DNA of 64,000 nt from a virus (IMGVR_UViG_3300028888_001628:1-64000); one strand, 5' to 3'. Shown: positions 24,131 to 41,462, counted from the first letter of the stretch. Notes: generated by a model not told the origin, from the letters alone. A program made the numbers and translations.

Positions 24131-24628
24131 ATGAAACGAAAACTTACATTAGAAGAACGTGTTGCAAAACTAGAAAAAGCACTAAAACTTGAGTATCGTG
24201 ACGTTGAATATACAGAATATTATCCTAAGTATAGTAAAGCCGTATTTGCACGGCTACTTGACGATAAAACTGTTAATCCTACTGGCGCAGAATGGAAAGA
24301 TTTTCAAAAATCAATAGAAGCTGATGGTCTACGAGTCTCTGGTCCAGCTAATCTTGTTGATTCTCTTGATGTAGAGTGCCCAGAAGCTGAAGCTATTATT
24401 AAGAAAGCTGAACAAGAAGTTGCAAAAGTGCTTAAAAATGATAAAGTAGAAGTGGATGTGGTTCAGCAGAAAAACAAACACCTTATTGAAATTTGGGTTA
24501 TTGAAGACACTATGGATCAGTATAACAAAGATAATGATCCAGATTTATTTGCACAAGATTATTATGGTGGTCGTCGATTCTATGGTGGCGATAGATACGG
24601 CACATACGGCTATCATCGAAAATGGTAA
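24131..24628 (+). CDS. Leader-family protein (putative internal virion protein)
   Basis: LEERVAKLEKALKLE leader. Confidence 0.6.
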   Translation: MKRKLTLEERVAKLEKALKLEYRDVEYTEYYPKYSKAVFARLLDDKTVNPTGAEWKDFQKSIEADGLRVSGPANLVDSLDVECPEAEAIIKKAEQEVAKVLKNDKVEVDVVQQKNKHLIEIWVIEDTMDQYNKDNDPDLFAQDYYGGRRFYGGDRYGTYGYHRKW

Positions 24629-24718: not shown

Positions 24719-26686
24719 ATGAGCAAAAAGAATACTAAGGTAGCAAAGTTAATAAAACTTTTAACAGGTGATAATAAAGTTGAACAGATTGCGAATGTAA
24801 TCGATAAAGTACAAGTAAAAGAGTACGAGCAGATAAGGCCTATAGTTCCAATAGAGAAATGGATAAACGATCAGTATTATGTTGGGAAAGACTGTGTTGA
24901 TAAATTATATCCTTTTTGGAAGGATCTCATCTGTGAAATATTTGGTGGTGGAAAGCAAAATTATAATCAGATAGTTTTAACGGGTGGTATCGGTACAGGT
25001 AAATCAACTTGTGGATTGTATATAGTTCTAAGAAAGTTGTATGAACTATCTTGTTATGAAAATGTTGCAGGTCTATTTGGTTTAATGTCAAATACTATGA
25101 CAGCATTTTTGTATTTTTCTCTAACTAAGTATCAGGCTGAGCGATCAGGGTTTTCGCAGTTAAGATCCATTATAGATGGTGTCCCATACTTTAAAGAATT
25201 ATTTAAACGTAATCAATATAGAAATTCTACATTAGACTTTCCAGAGAACATCCGTATTTTTTACGGTTCATCTACATCTGATATGATTGGTCTTAACTGT
25301 ATTAGTGCAGTTATTGACGAGGCTAACTTCTTTGGTGATAGCTCAGGTTCTGAAGTTGATTTAGGATCAGTAGAAGAATTATACAATGCAGTTCTATCAA
25401 GAACGTCTTCGCGTTTTACTTCAAATGGTGTTAATAACTCGCTCAATTTAGTTATATCTTCATCTACATTTAAAACGTCAATGACTTCTAAATTATATGA
25501 GAAGTCACTAACAGATCCTTCTATTAAATATGCAAGAGCAAGGCTATGGGATATTAAACCTAAAGGCACATATAAAGATGAGACATTCTTTGTATTTGCA
25601 GGCAATGATAAATTTGATCCATTTATAATAAATGATGTATCTGATCTCAGTGTTAAATTAGGTATTAGTTTAGACCCTAGTTTATCTATGAAAGAAGCTA
25701 TCTCTAAACTATCACAAGAATACAGAAATCTCATTGACGAAGTACCTATTGATTTTTACCCAAACTATGCAAATAATGTATCACAGGCGCTTCAAGATTT
25801 CTCTGGTATGTCAGTCTCTTCTACTGGAAGATTATTCTCTTCAAGATCAACTTTTGAGGCTTGCATAGATCCTTCTGTACAGCCGTTATTTACTAAGGAT
25901 GAGTTTGTTGTAGAGACGTGTAATAATGAACCTTCTAACTGCATACAGTATTATTTAAATGGCATAGAATTTCCACACAAAGAATGTCCAAGATATTTGC
26001 ACATAGATATTGGCGTTGCAAACGACGCCTACGGTATTGCTTGTTGTTATAAATATGGAAGTAAAGTTATAGATGGTGTTGAATCACCTGAGTTTTACTA
26101 TGACTTTGTTTTACGAATAGTCCCACCTGCACCACCGAAACGAGTGTCTATTTCAAGATGCCATGAGTTCATTAAATATATGAGAGACACACTTGGATTA
26201 AGAATAGGTTTAATCTCATTCGACCAATTTCAAAGTGAAGCAAGTAGACAGTATCTCTCTGAGAATGGTTTTAACGTTGCTTATCAGAGTGTAGATAAAA
26301 CTGATACACAGTACTTATTCTTTGTAGATTGTTTATATAAAGGTGTGGTTCATTTCAGTCAAGAATTTGCAGATTCTATTAAGAAAGAATTATTCGAACT
26401 TATCTGGTATAAGGCAAAACATAAGGTAGACCACCCAGGATCCACAAAGACTGGTGGTATGAAAGACCGCTGCGACGGTGTTGTTGGTGCATTATATAAT
26501 GCTTACACTTCTAAAGAAGCTGTTTTCGACCCATCTGACATTCTGAATCTTTCTAAATTTAACAATGAATTTGATCTAGCGCCTAGTGTAGATGATTTTA
26601 ATGATAATTTATTAAATGGAATAAAGCGAGTGTCTTTGGATGAGATAGATGATATATCGCCATATCTTAATAGAGATAATATTTAA
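24719..26686 (+). CDS. terL: Terminase large subunit
   Basis: GGIGTGKS Walker A, VIDEANF Walker B, HIDIG, SFDQFQS, KVDHP...KDRCD nuclease. Confidence 0.92.
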   Translation: MSKKNTKVAKLIKLLTGDNKVEQIANVIDKVQVKEYEQIRPIVPIEKWINDQYYVGKDCVDKLYPFWKDLICEIFGGGKQNYNQIVLTGGIGTGKSTCGLYIVLRKLYELSCYENVAGLFGLMSNTMTAFLYFSLTKYQAERSGFSQLRSIIDGVPYFKELFKRNQYRNSTLDFPENIRIFYGSSTSDMIGLNCISAVIDEANFFGDSSGSEVDLGSVEELYNAVLSRTSSRFTSNGVNNSLNLVISSSTFKTSMTSKLYEKSLTDPSIKYARARLWDIKPKGTYKDETFFVFAGNDKFDPFIINDVSDLSVKLGISLDPSLSMKEAISKLSQEYRNLIDEVPIDFYPNYANNVSQALQDFSGMSVSSTGRLFSSRSTFEACIDPSVQPLFTKDEFVVETCNNEPSNCIQYYLNGIEFPHKECPRYLHIDIGVANDAYGIACCYKYGSKVIDGVESPEFYYDFVLRIVPPAPPKRVSISRCHEFIKYMRDTLGLRIGLISFDQFQSEASRQYLSENGFNVAYQSVDKTDTQYLFFVDCLYKGVVHFSQEFADSIKKELFELIWYKAKHKVDHPGSTKTGGMKDRCDGVVGALYNAYTSKEAVFDPSDILNLSKFNNEFDLAPSVDDFNDNLLNGIKRVSLDEIDDISPYLNRDNI

Positions 26687-26797
26687 CACTATCTAAATTC
26701 ATATAAACCATCTATTTAATTTTAAATAGATGGTTTTGTATTATCTATTATATAGTAAATATTCTTTGTAGTGTGTAAATTATTTTGAGGCTATAAG

Positions 26798-28579
26798 ATG
26801 GGTTTATTAGATAATTATAAATTACAAAAAAGATTAGAAAAATTAGAGTATCTTATATACGAAAAAACATCTTGGAGAGGTGAGCCGTCAAAAGCGTATT
26901 TAATTTGGAAATACTTAATGGACAATGGACCGTCATCCACAAGCACATTAAAAAGAGAATTTCCACCTAAAATATCATCTGATACGGCGATAAAGTTCTT
27001 TGTTGATAATAATCTGTTATACAAAAATGGTGATACAGTATCTGCTAATGCAGATTACAGTTGGGATGATGTTGGAGTTATACCTAGAACTGCCCAGCAA
27101 GAGCAAATAATCAATACCATGAATGATAACTCTAGCGTAGAAGAAGAGCCAGTACAACCACGAACTAGGACACCTCGCGCTAGACAAGTAAAACAGAATT
27201 TATTTTCTAAGAAATTAGAAGAAGTAAAAGCAGCTGTTGAAGCTGGTCAAGATGTAAATCAAGAAAATGATAAAGAACAAACTCCATTAATGTTTGCTTT
27301 AAACGCTAAAAATGCAGATAATCTAGACATTATTCAGTATTTATTACAGAACGGGGCAGATATTACCAGTACATATAGAGGCTATGATGCCTATGGATTA
27401 GCATGTAAAAATAATAAAGAAGAAGCTGCTAGAATTATATTAATTAATGATACATATAGTACTATTACTAAACCAATGTATTTATTTTCACGTATTAATG
27501 GTGGAACGCCTAGTGATAGTGAGTTTGTAATGGTAGCTTCTACTAAAGAAAGAGGTGCTTTTGATTCATCAACGCATCTATTATATTATAGAATATTTTT
27601 GTATGGTACAATTACGTTAGATCAATATGAACAAGCTATTTCTACAATAATTAATAATAGTAACATTGATAACGGCGTATCTGGGTTGGCATTAAACGGT
27701 GAATTTGAAAGAAATATATTTAACACGTATAAATGTTTTGCTGATAAGTATCATAGATTGCCAGTAACATTTTTAAATCAAATTGAGCGGTTTTCTATTA
27801 ATATAAAGAGAAATCTTCTTGAATACTTCAAAAAAGCTTTAGATGGTAAATTACGATCTTCATTAGGTATCTCTGATTTTATTGATCAGTATACTTATTT
27901 ATGTAATGAGCTTAATGAGCAACCAGATTTAAGTAATGTTTTTTCATCAGAAATTCTTCGTAATCAAACTGAAACACAAATACGCCGTCTCATTTCTAAT
28001 TTAGTTCATAATAACGATGTATCGACTCTTAGAAAGATAGTAAACTCCGGTGTTAAAATTAGTTTGAGTGCAGCTATAGATGAGTGCAGCTCTGTAAGTG
28101 ATGATAATATAGCTAGACTAATATTAAAGTTAGCTAACAAAGAACGACCAAGCGTTTACGATTTTAGATCTGTAGCACAGTCTAAAAATAAATATTTAGT
28201 TGAATACTTTATTGATAATGGTTACGCTGAAGATATTATGTATGAATGTATTTCTAGTATTGTAACTGGTGATTCTTTATGTATAAAAGTTCTTATAGAT
28301 AATGGTTATGAATTTCCACGTGGAGAAGAAGTCTCTAATTTTAGAAGTAATGTACGTAATAAAAGAAATATACAGAATTATATCGATAAAATAGTAGCTG
28401 GTATTAATAGAGATGAAATAAATAGAGATTTATTAACAGCTATTGAGCAAAACACTGATATTATGAATAGTAAAGAAATAGCTAATGCTATTAAAAATAA
28501 TGATAACGTGACGTCTAGACAGATTCAAAGAATACTAGATAGAAATAACGTTTCACAGTCAGATACTTACGATATGTAA
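26798..28579 (+). CDS. Leader + wHTH-like + ankyrin-repeat protein, paralog 1
   Basis: LQKRLEKLEYLIYE; GQDVN...TPLMFA...LLQNGADI. Confidence 0.8.
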   Translation: MGLLDNYKLQKRLEKLEYLIYEKTSWRGEPSKAYLIWKYLMDNGPSSTSTLKREFPPKISSDTAIKFFVDNNLLYKNGDTVSANADYSWDDVGVIPRTAQQEQIINTMNDNSSVEEEPVQPRTRTPRARQVKQNLFSKKLEEVKAAVEAGQDVNQENDKEQTPLMFALNAKNADNLDIIQYLLQNGADITSTYRGYDAYGLACKNNKEEAARIILINDTYSTITKPMYLFSRINGGTPSDSEFVMVASTKERGAFDSSTHLLYYRIFLYGTITLDQYEQAISTIINNSNIDNGVSGLALNGEFERNIFNTYKCFADKYHRLPVTFLNQIERFSINIKRNLLEYFKKALDGKLRSSLGISDFIDQYTYLCNELNEQPDLSNVFSSEILRNQTETQIRRLISNLVHNNDVSTLRKIVNSGVKISLSAAIDECSSVSDDNIARLILKLANKERPSVYDFRSVAQSKNKYLVEYFIDNGYAEDIMYECISSIVTGDSLCIKVLIDNGYEFPRGEEVSNFRSNVRNKRNIQNYIDKIVAGINRDEINRDLLTAIEQNTDIMNSKEIANAIKNNDNVTSRQIQRILDRNNVSQSDTYDM

Positions 28580-28595
28580 TTATATGGAGTGCAGC

Positions 28596-30437
28596 ATGAG
28601 TTTATTAGATAATTATAAATTACGAAAGAGATTAGAAAAATTAGAATCACTTGCATATGAAAAGACTTCTTGGAGAGGTGAACCATCAAAAGCGTATCTT
28701 TTATGGAAATATCTAATGGATAATGGGCCTCAGACTGTAAGTAATGTACAATCTGAATTTCCACCTAAGATATCATCTAACACAGCCATTAACTTTTTTG
28801 CTAGCAATGACTTAATTTATAGAAATGGAAATACACTTTCAGCCAATCCTGATTATAATTGGGAAGACGTTGGTGTTATTCCTAGAACTGCTCAACAAGA
28901 GACTATAAGTGACATGATGAGCGGTTCGCTAGATGTAGAAGATGAAGCACCGGTACAAACAAGAGCTCCTATATCTAGAAGGCGTGCTGTTAAGGCTAAT
29001 ATATTTTCTAAAAAAGTAGAAGAAGTTCAAGCAGCTATAGATGAAGGCGTTGATGTAAACACAACAGATAATAGAGATAGAACACCTTTAATGGTAGCCT
29101 GTATGGCTAGAAATGGTGACACTGGAGCAGTTATTAAGCTTCTTCTAGACAATGGTGCTAACCCAAACGACGATTATAATACAAAGCCGGCTGTATTATA
29201 TACTGTAAAGTATAATAATAAAGAAGGCACTTTAGCATTAGCTAACGCCGGAGCTTATTTAGCCATAGTTGGAGATTCAGCTGCGCTAATGGTTAATATA
29301 ATAAATAGTAAGCTATTTAGTGCTAATGAAATAGTCAGTATGATTACTGAAGACTTCATGAGAAAGTATATTGAAAAAGATTTTTTCATTAGACCTATGA
29401 TTTCGAGTGGTTGCTCTAATCTTGATAATCCTAATTTATTCTTAGACAAGCTTATAAGCACTACTTTAAAAGTTACTAATAAGCCTACTGTTATAAATGA
29501 TGGTCTGTCTGTAAATGTGAACTCTCCTTACTGGTTTATAGTAGCAGATGCACTTGAAAGAAATGGACGTGCTATCTATATATCTGGTAACGATGATTAC
29601 GTAATATCTAGGGTTGTTGAACAGCGTAAAGTAGCCGATAAAGTATATGACTTAGCAGAAAAGATTGGTAATGGAGTTCTTAAAACTGGTAGTCTAACTG
29701 GTTATTGTAGAGCTGTAATTGGAATATGTAATAAATATAACAAATCAGTAAATGTACTAGAAAATCTGCTAAAACAAGATGTGTTTAATGACTTTAGTCC
29801 GTATTATCAATGGGAGATTCTCTCATTAGCTACTGATGATGAGAGAGAAAACGAGGTGGTTAGTGATACACTTATAAGATGTCTTAATAAATTAAAATTT
29901 AAAAAACCTACACCTGATATGCTTTATGATGTTATTTATAATTGTTCAGAAATAGGCAATCTTGATATGAATGGTGAAATACCTAGTTCAATAACAAGAC
30001 TCGTGTGCAAAAAAATTAAACCATACGCTAGAATTATTAATGATATTGGTATAACACGAATAGCTGGTATGAGAGATAGATTATTCATTGAAGAAATGAT
30101 CGATGCTGGGTTAGGTGAAGATTTAGCTGCAAGCTGGGCACTATCTAATGTGTGTAAACAGGAATTAGAAAAAGCAGGCGTATCTAATATAGGCAAACCA
30201 CGTAACAGTTTAACGGGAAATAGCTTAATTAATAGAATTATAGATCATATATATAATGACACAATGGATCAACATGCCAGACAACGTATAAATGAAGATC
30301 CAGAAATATTAAGTAATGAAGTAATTCAAGATGCTTTAAATGATCCATCTAATGAAGATTCAGTTACAGCAGCTCAATTAAAGAGACAGTACGATCAGTG
30401 GCTCGCTTCAGGTGAAAAACCTAAGTATGATATGTAA
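28596..30437 (+). CDS. Leader + wHTH-like + ankyrin-repeat protein, paralog 2
   Basis: First ~100 aa highly similar to paralog 1; TPLMVAC...LLDNGANPN. Confidence 0.8.
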   Translation: MSLLDNYKLRKRLEKLESLAYEKTSWRGEPSKAYLLWKYLMDNGPQTVSNVQSEFPPKISSNTAINFFASNDLIYRNGNTLSANPDYNWEDVGVIPRTAQQETISDMMSGSLDVEDEAPVQTRAPISRRRAVKANIFSKKVEEVQAAIDEGVDVNTTDNRDRTPLMVACMARNGDTGAVIKLLLDNGANPNDDYNTKPAVLYTVKYNNKEGTLALANAGAYLAIVGDSAALMVNIINSKLFSANEIVSMITEDFMRKYIEKDFFIRPMISSGCSNLDNPNLFLDKLISTTLKVTNKPTVINDGLSVNVNSPYWFIVADALERNGRAIYISGNDDYVISRVVEQRKVADKVYDLAEKIGNGVLKTGSLTGYCRAVIGICNKYNKSVNVLENLLKQDVFNDFSPYYQWEILSLATDDERENEVVSDTLIRCLNKLKFKKPTPDMLYDVIYNCSEIGNLDMNGEIPSSITRLVCKKIKPYARIINDIGITRIAGMRDRLFIEEMIDAGLGEDLAASWALSNVCKQELEKAGVSNIGKPRNSLTGNSLINRIIDHIYNDTMDQHARQRINEDPEILSNEVIQDALNDPSNEDSVTAAQLKRQYDQWLASGEKPKYDM

Positions 30438-30495
30438 ATAAATTAACGAGCTATATAGCTCGTTAATAAATCTATACTTTATATAGGATATACAA

Positions 30496-32088
30496 ATGAA
30501 CTTATTAAACACTTATAAGTTACAAAAAAGATTAGAAAAGTTAGAATCAATCTTGCGTATATTTAATGAGGATGAGATAACTGACATAAACAACACTGCA
30601 CGCACGCAACGTGCAAGAAAATCAAAAGCTAACATATTTTCAAGAAAACTTGATAGTGTGTTAGCAGCAATAGATGAAGGTCAAGATATAAATCAAGTTA
30701 ATAGTAAAGGTCAAACGCCATTGTTAGCGATGACAGCTGCAACACCGATCGAAGTAGTTAAATGCTTATTGGATAATGGTGCAGATTTAAATCTTACATA
30801 TAAAGACAAAGACGCGTTTGAGTTAGCAAGTAAAAATAACCGCGAAGATATTGCAAGCTTAATTCTTAGCGATAGTAATTTTAAACCTAAATACAATATT
30901 TTACAGACATATTACAATCTTAGCAGGCATACGGCTACTGATACTAGTTTTATTTCATTAGCTGCTTCTAAAGAATCTGGTGAGTTTTCATTTGATCTAT
31001 ATTTACCATACTACTATACTTTTAATAGTGGTGTATTAACAAAAGAACAGTATAAAAATGTAATGACTACAGTTGTTAATAATTGTAGTAGTTTTAAAGA
31101 TGATACATCAGAGTATAATAAATATCTAGTGTCTGAACTGGATAAAGATGCACCTGTTACTATATGCTGTATTGCTGATAGATTTAAACTTTTTGTAAAG
31201 TTATATGATCAGAATGTAAATCTTAAATCATTGCCGCATGATAGTCAACTAGCACTTATCGATCTTTGCAAGAGATGCATAGAGGGTGATATACAGCTCA
31301 CGCGTGGTGATGTATATGATGCTATTTCAATGTGCAGTACACTGTGTGATTTAGTTGGTTACGACTATAATCCATACGAAGCTGTCTATGATCCATCTAC
31401 AATTAAAAAACTCTCTGAAAAAAATCTGTATCATTTAATGAATGCTGCTATACGAGGTAATCGTGAAGATAGACTTAAACAAATGATTGCTGCTAGAGCA
31501 AAGATTAGTTTATGTACAGCAAAAACGTATCTAAGTAATAATAAAAACTTAGATAGAAAGTGGGTACAGTTAATAGTACAGTTGATAGATTTACCTAAAG
31601 GTAGAACAGACGCCACAACATTACAATGTATATACGAATCTATATTTAGCCACTATGATGACTATATAGAATTTCTAATTGATAGAGGCTATGGTGATAG
31701 ATTAGCTTATTATTGTGCTGATAGACGAAAAGGAAAACCAGGAGGTATTGATCGTGACACTCGTGACTGTGCGGTAGTATTAGTAAGAAATGGTTATGAT
31801 CTTAATAAAGATTATAATTACGCTGTTGATGATGAAGTTAACCCTAACAATGTAAATGCTGTAGCAAAAGCTATTGTTAGAGCTATAAAATATGATTCTA
31901 TTGATAGCAACCTTATAAAATCTATTGAAAAATACCCTGCGGCTTTAGGTAGTGATATTGTTACAGATGCTATAGCTAATGCTGGTGATAATAACGCAAT
32001 TAGTCGTCAGATTCAAAGAATGAAAGATAGACTATATAGCGATGATCTTGATAACGATAGTGGTGATGATAACGTTTATGATTTCTAA
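30496..32088 (+). CDS. Leader + ankyrin-repeat protein, paralog 3 (no wHTH)
   Basis: LQKRLEKLESILRIFNE; GQTPLL...LLDNGADLN. Confidence 0.8.
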   Translation: MNLLNTYKLQKRLEKLESILRIFNEDEITDINNTARTQRARKSKANIFSRKLDSVLAAIDEGQDINQVNSKGQTPLLAMTAATPIEVVKCLLDNGADLNLTYKDKDAFELASKNNREDIASLILSDSNFKPKYNILQTYYNLSRHTATDTSFISLAASKESGEFSFDLYLPYYYTFNSGVLTKEQYKNVMTTVVNNCSSFKDDTSEYNKYLVSELDKDAPVTICCIADRFKLFVKLYDQNVNLKSLPHDSQLALIDLCKRCIEGDIQLTRGDVYDAISMCSTLCDLVGYDYNPYEAVYDPSTIKKLSEKNLYHLMNAAIRGNREDRLKQMIAARAKISLCTAKTYLSNNKNLDRKWVQLIVQLIDLPKGRTDATTLQCIYESIFSHYDDYIEFLIDRGYGDRLAYYCADRRKGKPGGIDRDTRDCAVVLVRNGYDLNKDYNYAVDDEVNPNNVNAVAKAIVRAIKYDSIDSNLIKSIEKYPAALGSDIVTDAIANAGDNNAISRQIQRMKDRLYSDDLDNDSGDDNVYDF

Positions 32089-33330: not shown

Positions 33331-33376
33331 ACTTAATGGCGTATCAATTACGATACGCCATTTTAATATGTAAATA

Positions 33377-34378: not shown

Positions 34379-34454
34379 TTAATACAGAAAGCAAATCTAT
34401 TGTATATAAAACCTAGTATAATAATACTAGGTTTTATTTTTATAAAGAGTGGTT

Positions 34455-39980: not shown

Positions 39981-41462
39981 GTGATGCCAGCAAGATTAAA
40001 CTTAGACGAGCTCAAAAAAGAGTATATATGTAAGATTTTTGGATGGCTCACTGTACTTGATGTGATTAGAACAGACGCTGGTGCGTACCTTTTTAGATGC
40101 AAATGCAAGTGTGGCGCACTAAAAGATGTTGATAAAAAGCACGTTTTACATGGTAGCATAAAAAGCTGTGGTTGTTATCAAAAGTCTAAAGAAAAAGCCG
40201 ATAAGTATTCTAAATGGTGTAAAGAAAATCCTGATAAGGTAAAGGCAAAAGCAGAAAAAGCAAAAGAATACTTTAAAGAACACCCTGATCAACTTATAGA
40301 GCAAGGTAAATCTCATTCTGAGTGGATAAAAAGTAATGACAGTGAAAGATATAGACTTGCTAATTGGCATAAAGAAAATTCAGAGCTGTCTGCAAAAGCT
40401 TCCGCAAAAAGATCTCAGTGGAGTAAGGATCATCCAGACCTTCAAAAGAAAATAAATGAAAAAGTATCAAAGGCTATTACAGATGATGAAAGAAAGTCGC
40501 GCAGTGAAAGAAGACGTAGATTTTATATAGAGCGGCCTGATGATGCCGCTGAAATGAATAAACGTATAAGTGAAACTGTAAAACAGTTTTGGAAAGACAA
40601 CCCTGACGTAATGGCTAACATTACACAAAAGAGAGCTTTGCTGCTAAAAGAAAACCCAGAAATAATAGCAGGAATATCAGAGTCTGTTAAACAAGCATTT
40701 GCTAAAAAACGGTCAGAAATAGACTTTAGCGGCATCATTGACATTATACATCCTGATTATGTTAGCGATTTACTAAGTGGAAACATAAAATGCGATAGTA
40801 AAGTAATGACGAAATGCCCTAGGTGTAATAATTATGAAACACATCCATTTGGTGCAATATTTAGTCTCAGACAATCTGCTATAAGAAGTGAATTACTATG
40901 TAAAAAATGTGCGTACTCAATTACATCGTCTAAAGCTGAAGGTGAGATAGCTGAATATATTTCATCATTCTACAAAGGTGATTGTGTAAGAAACATACGT
41001 AGCATTATACCACCGCAGGAACTTGACTTATATTATCCTGAAAAGAAAATTGCTATTGAGTTCAATGGTGATTATTGGCATGATGAAAATCATAAACCTA
41101 AAGACTATCACTATAACAAGTTCAAAGCGTGTTTAGAAAAAGGAATCTTACTAGTTTCAATTTTTGAACATGATTGGAACACAAGAAAAGATGTCATTAA
41201 ACAGTACTTAATAGACTTATTTAATGGTACAGAAAACTGTCTATCATTTGTAAATGAAAAATATGTAAATAATAACTATCCACTGCCAAATATGTGTGAT
41301 AAATCATTATTAAGTGTCATTAGCAATAGCTATATTTATGATAAAGATGACGTAAAAGTATTCACATGTGGCTATTCTGAAGTTGGTGATAAACAATGGG
41401 AATTATTTAAAGAAAAAATAAAGTCATACAAAGACAGCGTGATTAAAGTAACAATAGTGTAA
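39981..41462 (+). mobile_element. Free-standing homing endonuclease-like gene (helical repeats, Zn finger, PD-(D/E)xK/Vsr-like nuclease)
   Basis: CKCKCG..KSCGC, WxKENP repeats, CPRC..CKKC, ELDLY..IAIEFNGDYWH. Confidence 0.8.

Follow-up and report, generated by a model that had tools for sequence, protein, structure and literature searches.

In bacteriophage T4, the internal proteins (IPs) and Alt reach the core through N-terminal propeptides, the capsid-targeting sequences (CTS) of 7–19 residues, which are removed by gp21; IPII and IPIII have an identical propeptide on divergent bodies, the sets of IPs differ between T4 relatives, probably through arms races, and Alt, a large cargo with signals at both ends, is trimmed at each of them (PMC9026906, PMC3012670). 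In SPN3US and phiKZ, head and ejection proteins form paralog families of variable copy number with common N-terminal propeptides (PMC5694885). The locus considered here is a tandem array of three ankyrin-repeat genes, P1, P2 and P3, at positions 26798–32088 of a 64,000-nucleotide stretch of viral DNA (IMGVR_UViG_3300028888_001628:1-64000; hereafter the window), itself part of a 155,974-bp IMG/VR virus record with a completeness estimate of 68%. Coordinates refer to the window unless given as genome positions. All three proteins begin with a short helical leader that recurs at the N-termini of unrelated open reading frames (ORFs) across the genome. The same genome has genes for a prohead protease of the gp21 type and for a capsid protein of the T4 type. 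It is proposed, with a probability of roughly 0.4, that P1–P3 are protein-binding effectors that would be loaded into the prohead by means of this capsid-targeting-like leader and delivered at infection.

The ORF listing placed the three genes in tandem on the + strand, which bore out the original prediction, and Pfam Ank_2 was detected in each of them (40.7, 35.2 and 39.3 bits for P1, P2 and P3 respectively; cut-off 27.3), over only ~80 residues. P1 (26798–28579; 593 residues) has the full set of parts, i.e., leader, winged helix-turn-helix-like module (wHTH), linker, ankyrin/helical solenoid and tail. P2 (28596–30437; 613 residues from its likely start) has the full architecture also, with the most diverged middle; its start is most likely 28596 (MSLLD...), and not 28584 as in the ORF listing, because GGAG is present 6 nt upstream and a homologue is called at 613 residues from that methionine. 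P3 (30496–32088; 530 residues) groups with the P1 clade by its body, and its leader joins the Arg-rich linker directly, without the wHTH. In each case the leader corresponds to residues 1–22 (26798–26863 in P1, 28596–28661 in P2 and 30496–30561 in P3, all on the + strand). The three leaders were 70–82% identical, confirming that they are a common element; in P1 the leader forms an amphipathic helix (...LQKRLEKLE...) that ends in I-Y-E at E22, a residue at least 90% conserved in the family.

The leader had been described as a feature of the trio, which it is, but it was shown to open about 19 ORFs genome-wide. The pattern [LIM][EQ]x[RK][LIVM]xx[LIVM]E was searched in the genome's ORFs and occurred 22 times; 18 of these occurrences started within the first 30 residues, against an expectation of 19% (binomial P = 4e-10). 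The count of leader-bearing ORFs comprises these 18, identified by the strict pattern, plus P2, and many of them are under 100 residues long. Similarly, the motif was N-terminal in 13 of 18 cases in a relative that is 95% complete (G002; P = 5e-6), and the tag was also present in all related loci. Although the bodies behind it are unrelated, the leader keeps its polar positions (E, R and E), a pattern of conservation suggesting that it is recognised by one partner, rather than being a generic coiled coil. Apart from the ankyrin repeats of ORF33377, no Pfam or PHROGs family was found in the leader-bearing ORFs 24131, 33377, 35527, 38276 and 49693.

The Peptidase_S77/gp21-type prohead protease (50.5 bits; phrog_207, E = 1e-39) is a 327-residue ORF at genome 73423–74406 (L016:2424–3404), and is 70–80% identical between relatives within the clade. 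Its S77 domain is followed by a helical extension of ~165 residues containing at least five sites of the form hydrophobic-x-E followed by S or A. No separate scaffold gene was found before the major capsid protein (MCP), and the ORF is probably a protease–scaffold fusion. The MCP is of the Gp23 type (119 bits; genome 74399–75874). Its propeptide (residues 1–60) includes V-V-E-S (14–17) and (M/V)-K-N-E-S (51–55), both conserved in four relatives; the mature domain, itself conserved, lies just beyond these sites. Many of the leaders are likewise followed by K-N-E. The leaders of the ankyrin family terminate in (I/V/L)-x-E, followed by (K/R)(S/T), with the conserved E22 marking the putative cleavage site.

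These features resemble T4 IPI, IPII, IPIII and Alt in that a short, propeptide-like leader is found N-terminally on unrelated proteins with a Glu-terminated site after it, in that the genome encodes a protease of the gp21 type and a capsid protein of the gp23 type, and in that repertoires vary between relatives. They differ in that the leader is a heptad helix of ~20 residues (L-E-x-R-I-x-x-L-E) without sequence likeness to the T4 CTS, while the candidates are acidic ankyrin solenoids of 60–69 kDa, not small basic proteins, and the tagged ORFs number about 19. The comparison with SPN3US and phiKZ (gp53/gp54, pfam12699 family) is similar: there too, paralog copy number differs and the paralogs share N-terminal propeptides with a protease motif (PMC5694885). 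However, they show no relation to the present family in sequence or fold, and their protease is of the S80 type with (A/S/G)-x-E; the evidence for the locus described here is entirely genomic.

The course of loading, cleavage and ejection that we infer would begin with the leader, which would act in the manner of the CTS of the T4 IPs and Alt and dock its protein, in the prohead under assembly, on the core of scaffold and protease. The gp21-type protease would then cut the leader off after Glu, and the mature solenoid of 55–65 kDa would remain in the head and enter the cell with the DNA. Once there, as we further infer, the variable insert and ankyrin groove would bind lineage-specific targets, while the invariant tail would plug into a conserved partner.

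Several observations weigh against this proposal. The leader is a canonical heptad helix and is possibly a mere oligomerisation module; moreover, two ORFs of the head module have leader-like motifs at the C-terminus, and a few proteins have them internally. A leader-bearing ORF of 165 residues (24131–24628) is situated directly upstream of the gene for the terminase large subunit (TerL), where a small terminase (TerS) is expected; if it were TerS, its leader would be an oligomerisation coiled coil, which would count against pure capsid targeting. The hydrophobic-x-E site after the leaders is loosely defined, and P3 is without a clean site. P1–P3 are acidic (isoelectric point, pI, 5.1–5.3) and large, whereas the T4 IPs are small and basic, although Alt is large. 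The array lies between TerL and the replication genes, outside the head module; the T4 late TATAAATA was not found upstream of the trio, nor was TATAAATA enriched genome-wide (44 versus ~31). The clade has no cultured relative (the nearest cultured TerL is 27–29% identical), and the low conservation of the middles could reflect relaxed constraint, rather than diversifying selection.

The two head-module ORFs concerned are at genome 76392–77321 and 78450–78890, and their C-terminal leader-like motifs read ...RRITKLENLF... and ...IENRLAALERRF... respectively. ORF78450 is extremely acidic and its motif is kept in the homologue from G002. ORFs 76392 and 78450 could be core proteins that pair with N-terminal leaders.

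The heptad pattern of the leader, which was modelled as a helix, is also what would be expected if P1–P3 were not virion proteins but cytoplasmic adaptors. The coiled coil would then oligomerise or tie the proteins to a phage hub, the variable solenoid would capture host or phage proteins, and the invariant C-terminal helix with its Y-D-hydrophobic tail would dock on a conserved machine (a protease, a chaperone, or a replication/packaging factor), following a logic like that of poxvirus ANK/PRANC proteins. This explanation is the main rival, and is considered less likely than not, a little below prohead loading in probability. The acidity and size of the proteins, unlike the T4 IPs, and the location of the array beside replication genes are consistent with it; however, it leaves unexplained why the same N-terminal leader and Glu site should occur on about 19 unrelated ORFs, alongside a gp21-type protease. 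Loading into the prohead through the leader is retained in what follows as the preferred reading.

The bodies of P1–P3 had been predicted to be binders, and their architecture agreed with this, being an ankyrin/helical solenoid for which Pfam and PDB profile searches identified no enzymatic domain in the trio. P1 was modelled with AlphaFold2 on the basis of 61 members of the family, and the model (predicted local distance difference test, pLDDT, 89.8) comprised a leader helix at residues 2–20, a helix-helix-helix-hairpin unit (H-H-H-strand-strand) at 32–83, a disordered linker at 110–135 and one continuous helical-repeat body at 140–588, with the last few residues disordered (tail pLDDT below 50). 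The Arg-rich, disordered linker and the N-L-F-S-K-K motif, which caps the first ankyrin repeat, span residues 106–139 (27113–27214, + strand). A common K-x-N-(I/L)-F-S-(K/R)-K motif and ankyrin block had been noted in all three proteins, and both were recovered (Ank_2 E = 4e-10 to 2e-8; N134, F136, S137 and K139 at least 90% conserved among the 61 members). The canonical ankyrin block of P1 (residues ~131–255; 27188–27562, + strand) was the only part with matches in the PDB profile search, all of them ankyrin proteins, at profile positions ~153–262. Residues 132–252 superposed on DARPins (VIA Z 13.7; root mean square deviation 2.6–2.7 Å over 109–110 residues; 24% identity).

When the whole P1 body was submitted to Foldseek, it aligned with long ankyrin solenoids (AnkR/AnkB and FEM1) over 400–550 columns, and its structural neighbours included FEM1 substrate receptors and ankyrin proteins of poxviruses and mimivirus, a neighbourhood in keeping with an adaptor. 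The family is unlike DARPins, AnkR/AnkB and FEM1 in having only about 4 canonical repeats, and in that residues 221–593 of P1, which modelled well alone (pLDDT 91.3), gave no significant structural match (Foldseek best E = 0.017, none below 1e-3; VIA best Z 7.4, which is below a meaningful level for helical repeats). This region includes a variable helical insert (residues ~256–385; 27563–27952), with a hypervariable core placed at ~221–330, and a degenerate ankyrin-like block (residues ~386–520; 27953–28357), both on the + strand. Residues 227–382 resembled generic helical repeats only, while residues 385–520 aligned repeatedly but weakly with many ankyrin proteins (VIA Z 5.3–7.4 over ~115 residues), and comparison of the middle-region sequence with the ankyrin block by hhalign was weak also (E = 5e-4 and 4e-3). 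Assignment of the middle to a known fold, or to a sequence-level cryptic ankyrin, was rejected, there being weak signals only and no significant structural match. The body ends in a helical cap (residues 521–588; 28358–28561, + strand) with conserved P553, L556 and T572 and an R-Q-(I/L)-x-R helix.

The winged-helix-like module of P1 (residues 23–105; 26864–27112, + strand) has evolved in concert with the P2 copy, as described below. A structure search of the Atlas returned HTH_5, TrmB, IclR and SelB winged-helix clusters with template modelling (TM) scores of 0.5–0.64 over 55–75 residues; the feature search scored at most 0.88, a lead only. Pfam, applied at E = 10 to the module alone and to the C-terminal parts, produced zero matches. 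The module is near-neutral (pI 6.4), and the region of its third helix (residues 61–80) is among its least conserved; because of the missing Pfam match, the neutral charge and the poorly conserved third helix, it is read as a protein-binding module and not as a DNA reader.

An N-terminal HTH-type module combined with a coiled coil and a C-terminal partner-binding tail loosely recalls the logic of small terminases. On that basis, P1–P3 might be accessories of head assembly or DNA packaging, rather than effectors, with wHTH, coiled coil and docking tail working together with the neighbouring terminase or with the portal. The occurrence of the leader motif in head-module ORFs 76392 and 78450 agrees with such a role, which is nonetheless judged improbable: the wHTH is near-neutral with a recognition-helix region that is not conserved, no PHROG structural match was obtained for the trio, and the behaviour of the family across related loci, described next, is not that of the assembly proteins of the clade.

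Related loci were retrieved using an alignment as query. TerL (24719–26686, + strand) is a conserved anchor on the upstream side of the array, found in every related locus that includes the upstream gene, and the family directly follows TerL in L005–L007 and L010–L012, i.e., the loci containing both TerL and a family member, which favours an assembly role; in L005, a homing endonuclease and an ORF33377-like ankyrin gene intervene. Among loci with downstream DNA, an ORF32122-like gene follows the family in L005, L010, L011 and L012, and the clamp loader is found further downstream in L005, L011 and L012. Within this stable setting, the number of family copies was one in L005 and L012, two in L010 and L007, and three in L011 and the window. 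L011 and the window were 84% identical for TerL and 79% for the clamp loader, while their three family copies were only 28–32% identical and were ordered differently ([WH-,WH-,WH+] in L011 against [WH+,WH+,WH-] in the window, where WH denotes the wHTH). Across loci, family members were 27–49% identical, compared with 72–84% for TerL and 79% for the clamp loader. The family therefore evolves and turns over much more rapidly than the genes around it. By contrast, the clade's structural and assembly proteins are well conserved (TerL, and the protease as given above), and a variable copy number, optional domains, and the complete absence of the ankyrin body from L013 and L014 all count against an assembly function.

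About 160 full-length homologues were found, all of them metagenomic, and megablast of the region against cultured phages gave zero matches. Clustering at 50% produced roughly 50 family clusters, wHTH-less forms included; the remainder of the 150 best-scoring representatives matched the generic ankyrin block only. The family thus appears, on the evidence of these searches, to be confined to a clade of uncultured, T4-like phages of ~200 kb. The phage itself looks like a distant T4 relative, lytic in character, with DNA hypermodification genes.

Ankyrin repeats are mainly eukaryotic, and the proteins could in principle be directed at eukaryotes, being released by lysis and modulating an animal or protist host. 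The linker would fit, its Arg-rich sequence superficially resembling a nuclear localisation signal, and there are precedents in symbiont phages, such a role having been proposed for the ANKp proteins of phages from sponge symbionts and for the ankyrin genes of phage WO from Wolbachia (bioRxiv 10.1101/608950, PMC3563639). Like the present family, ANKp and WO proteins are bacteriophage-encoded ankyrin repeats; unlike it, they are proposed to be secreted or eukaryote-directed and belong to temperate or symbiont phages, whereas the family here lacks a signal peptide, is found in a T4-like clade and possesses conserved termini of its own. In addition, the N-terminus is occupied by the genome-wide leader helix, the phage is lytic-looking with its hypermodification genes, and beyond the phage clade only the generic ankyrin block is matched among those best-scoring representatives. 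A eukaryotic target is therefore regarded as very improbable, and delivery into the bacterial cell remains the favoured interpretation.

Divergence within the trio was unevenly distributed. Identity fell from the leader, through the wHTH (74% between P1 and P2) and the ankyrin block (40–43%), to only 8–21% in the middle, and stood at 19–45% over the last 33 residues. The original prediction of an unalignable middle of ~300 residues was correct for P2, which compared with P1 and P3 at chance level (z about 0; 8–13% identity), but not for P1 and P3, whose middles aligned with a local score of 171, against 34.6 ± 5.1 for shuffled sequences (z = 27; 21% identity). Furthermore, when the profiles of the two clades were compared, the second half of the middle (P1 331–460) was homologous (hhalign probability 96.7%, E = 3e-10). 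This left only the hypervariable core, ~110 residues at P1 ~221–330, without detectable profile-level homology. Among 61 members of the family, conservation was concentrated in the leader, E22, N-L-F-S-x-K, the first repeats, the last helix and the terminal Y-D, while residues 221–460 were variable, yet almost gap-free. The family-wide profile was accordingly high at both ends and low in the middle, as had been supposed; the middles are not conserved among relatives, and the proteins do not appear to be structural. Conserved ends with a variable middle would be expected of adaptors also.

A quick maximum-likelihood tree separated P2 from P1 and P3, which shared a clade, and both clades also included orthologues from elsewhere. 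In the body, orthologues were 39–49% identical and paralogs 23–24%. For the wHTH, however, paralogs of the same genome were most alike (74% and 68%, versus 56–65% across genomes) and there was no orthology signal. The leader and wHTH therefore constitute a module that evolves in concert within genomes, with a history different from that of the body. In L013 and L014, leader and wHTH are fused to an ORF32122-like body and the ankyrin member is absent. The wHTH had been described as near-identical in two proteins and missing from the third; P3 does lack it, but the other two copies are not near-identical at 74%.

Recent gene conversion was considered as the source of the wHTH similarity and rejected, since synonymous-site identity was raised only in the first ~20–40 codons. 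When P1 and P2 were compared at third codon positions (26798–26920 against 28596–28718), identity was 14/16 and 12/19 in the first 20–40 codons, versus about 50% later. The elevation represents either a recent, short conversion tract or nucleotide-level constraint on gene starts. The likeness of the wHTH copies accordingly reflects older homogenisation or co-evolution, and not a recent event.

The C-terminal tail is restricted to the family. It reads ...D-T-Y-D-M in P1 (28562–28576), ...K-P-K-Y-D-M in P2 (30420–30434) and, preceded by an acidic stretch, ...D-N-V-Y-D-F in P3 (32071–32085), all on the + strand. The common C-terminal sequence (...T-x-R-Q-(I/L)-x-R...Y-D-(M/F)) was present as described originally, with Y591 invariant and D592 at least 90% conserved in the 61 members, and of the 120 best homologues in the database, all but one (119) end in YD(M/F/L). 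Among the real ORFs of the genome, only the trio has a YD-hydrophobic tail. SSB-like acidic tails, clamp-binding motifs, HbYX and PDZ/DegS ligands appeared to be poor fits to the P-K-D-x-Y-D-hydrophobic consensus.

The tail had been thought to be a docking or ejection signal. Of these, docking is the better supported: being confined to the family while the leader is general, and predicted to be free, the tail fits a docking motif for a family-specific partner, rather than a general ejection signal. If a general packaging or ejection signal exists at all, the N-terminal leader is a far more likely candidate, because about 19 unrelated ORFs carry it and the genome encodes a prohead protease of the gp21 type. 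A tail that is family-specific, invariant and predicted to be free is also what a short linear docking motif on an adaptor would look like. Poxvirus ANK/PRANC proteins provide a parallel, being a multigene family of large DNA viruses in which variable ankyrin repeats are combined with a docking element that is conserved at the C-terminus; they differ in that the present proteins have a bacterial host, an N-terminal leader, an optional winged-helix, a terminal Y-D-hydrophobic carboxylate and no PRANC/F-box signal. No PRANC or F-box family was detected in Pfam scans of P1–P3 at E = 0.1 or of their C-terminal parts at E = 10, and bacteria are not known to have an SCF system; both points disfavour adaptors of the poxvirus kind.

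The proposal of prohead loading may be extended, tentatively and with rather low expectation, to the genome as a whole. One coiled-coil leader would be a universal head-loading tag for about twenty cargos, of which the array would be the largest and fastest-evolving, and the first case of phage-injected ankyrin-repeat effectors; the leader and winged-helix together would be a portable delivery module, homogenised between paralogs within a genome and re-attachable to other bodies, as in the ORF32122 fusion of L013 and L014, while the tail would engage a conserved machine of the host or the phage. Should the leader prove to be a capsid-targeting signal, the principle of the T4 internal proteins would be extended to a different tag, a much larger set of cargos and a new class of cargo, i.e., ankyrin solenoids of 60–70 kDa. 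The array would then be a natural library of binders against bacterial targets, possibly defence systems, and the leader could be of practical use as a tag with which to load phage heads with foreign proteins. Even if there is no packaging, the locus is a clear instance of modular phage evolution, in which a concerted N-terminal module is combined with a fast-diverging binding body, and the invariant three-residue C-terminal motif gives a direct handle for a partner search.

The window has a G+C content of 31%, and nearly all of its genes are on the + strand. Four strong hairpins, at 26705–26736, 30442–30467, 33335–33362 and 34406–34437, divide the region into [P1-P2], [P3-ORF32122] and [ORF33377]; the first is terminator-like, on the + strand between TerL and P1, while the second is a palindrome between P2 and P3, without strand. 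Terminator-like sites were enriched (13, against 3.2 ± 1.8 in shuffled sequences). Sigma-70-like sites were not above shuffles (61 against 73 ± 9).

ORF32122 (32122–33330, + strand; 402 residues) is the conserved downstream neighbour of the array, and it is this body that is fused to the family leader and wHTH in L013 and L014. An acidic motif, L-D-(L/F/W/Y)-D-D, occurs five times in its N-terminal half, the C-terminal half being helical; there were zero Pfam or PHROG matches. The possibility that it is a fourth paralog was rejected at the sequence level (hhalign against the family, E = 0.12). The fusion hints, in the manner of a Rosetta stone, at a functional link with the ankyrin family.

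ORF33377 (33377–34378) consists of the leader, a domain of ~145 residues without known identity, and C-terminal ankyrin repeats. The same domain is found in ORF49693 (49693–50691; 38% identity over ~148 residues). Atlas feature searches with this domain scored 0.83 at most, a lead only; the hit to the OspC3 family, which combines an ART-like domain with ankyrin, reached just 0.81, without Pfam support, and was set aside as a weak lead. The homing endonuclease between TerL and the array in L005 is of the NUMOD3 type (L005:7041–8045), and TerL in L013 is 1065 residues long (L013:1796–4993), with a probable intein or insertion. In the window, an HNH/homing endonuclease ORF (phrog_3339) occurs at 39981–41462; mobile elements thus surround the packaging genes.

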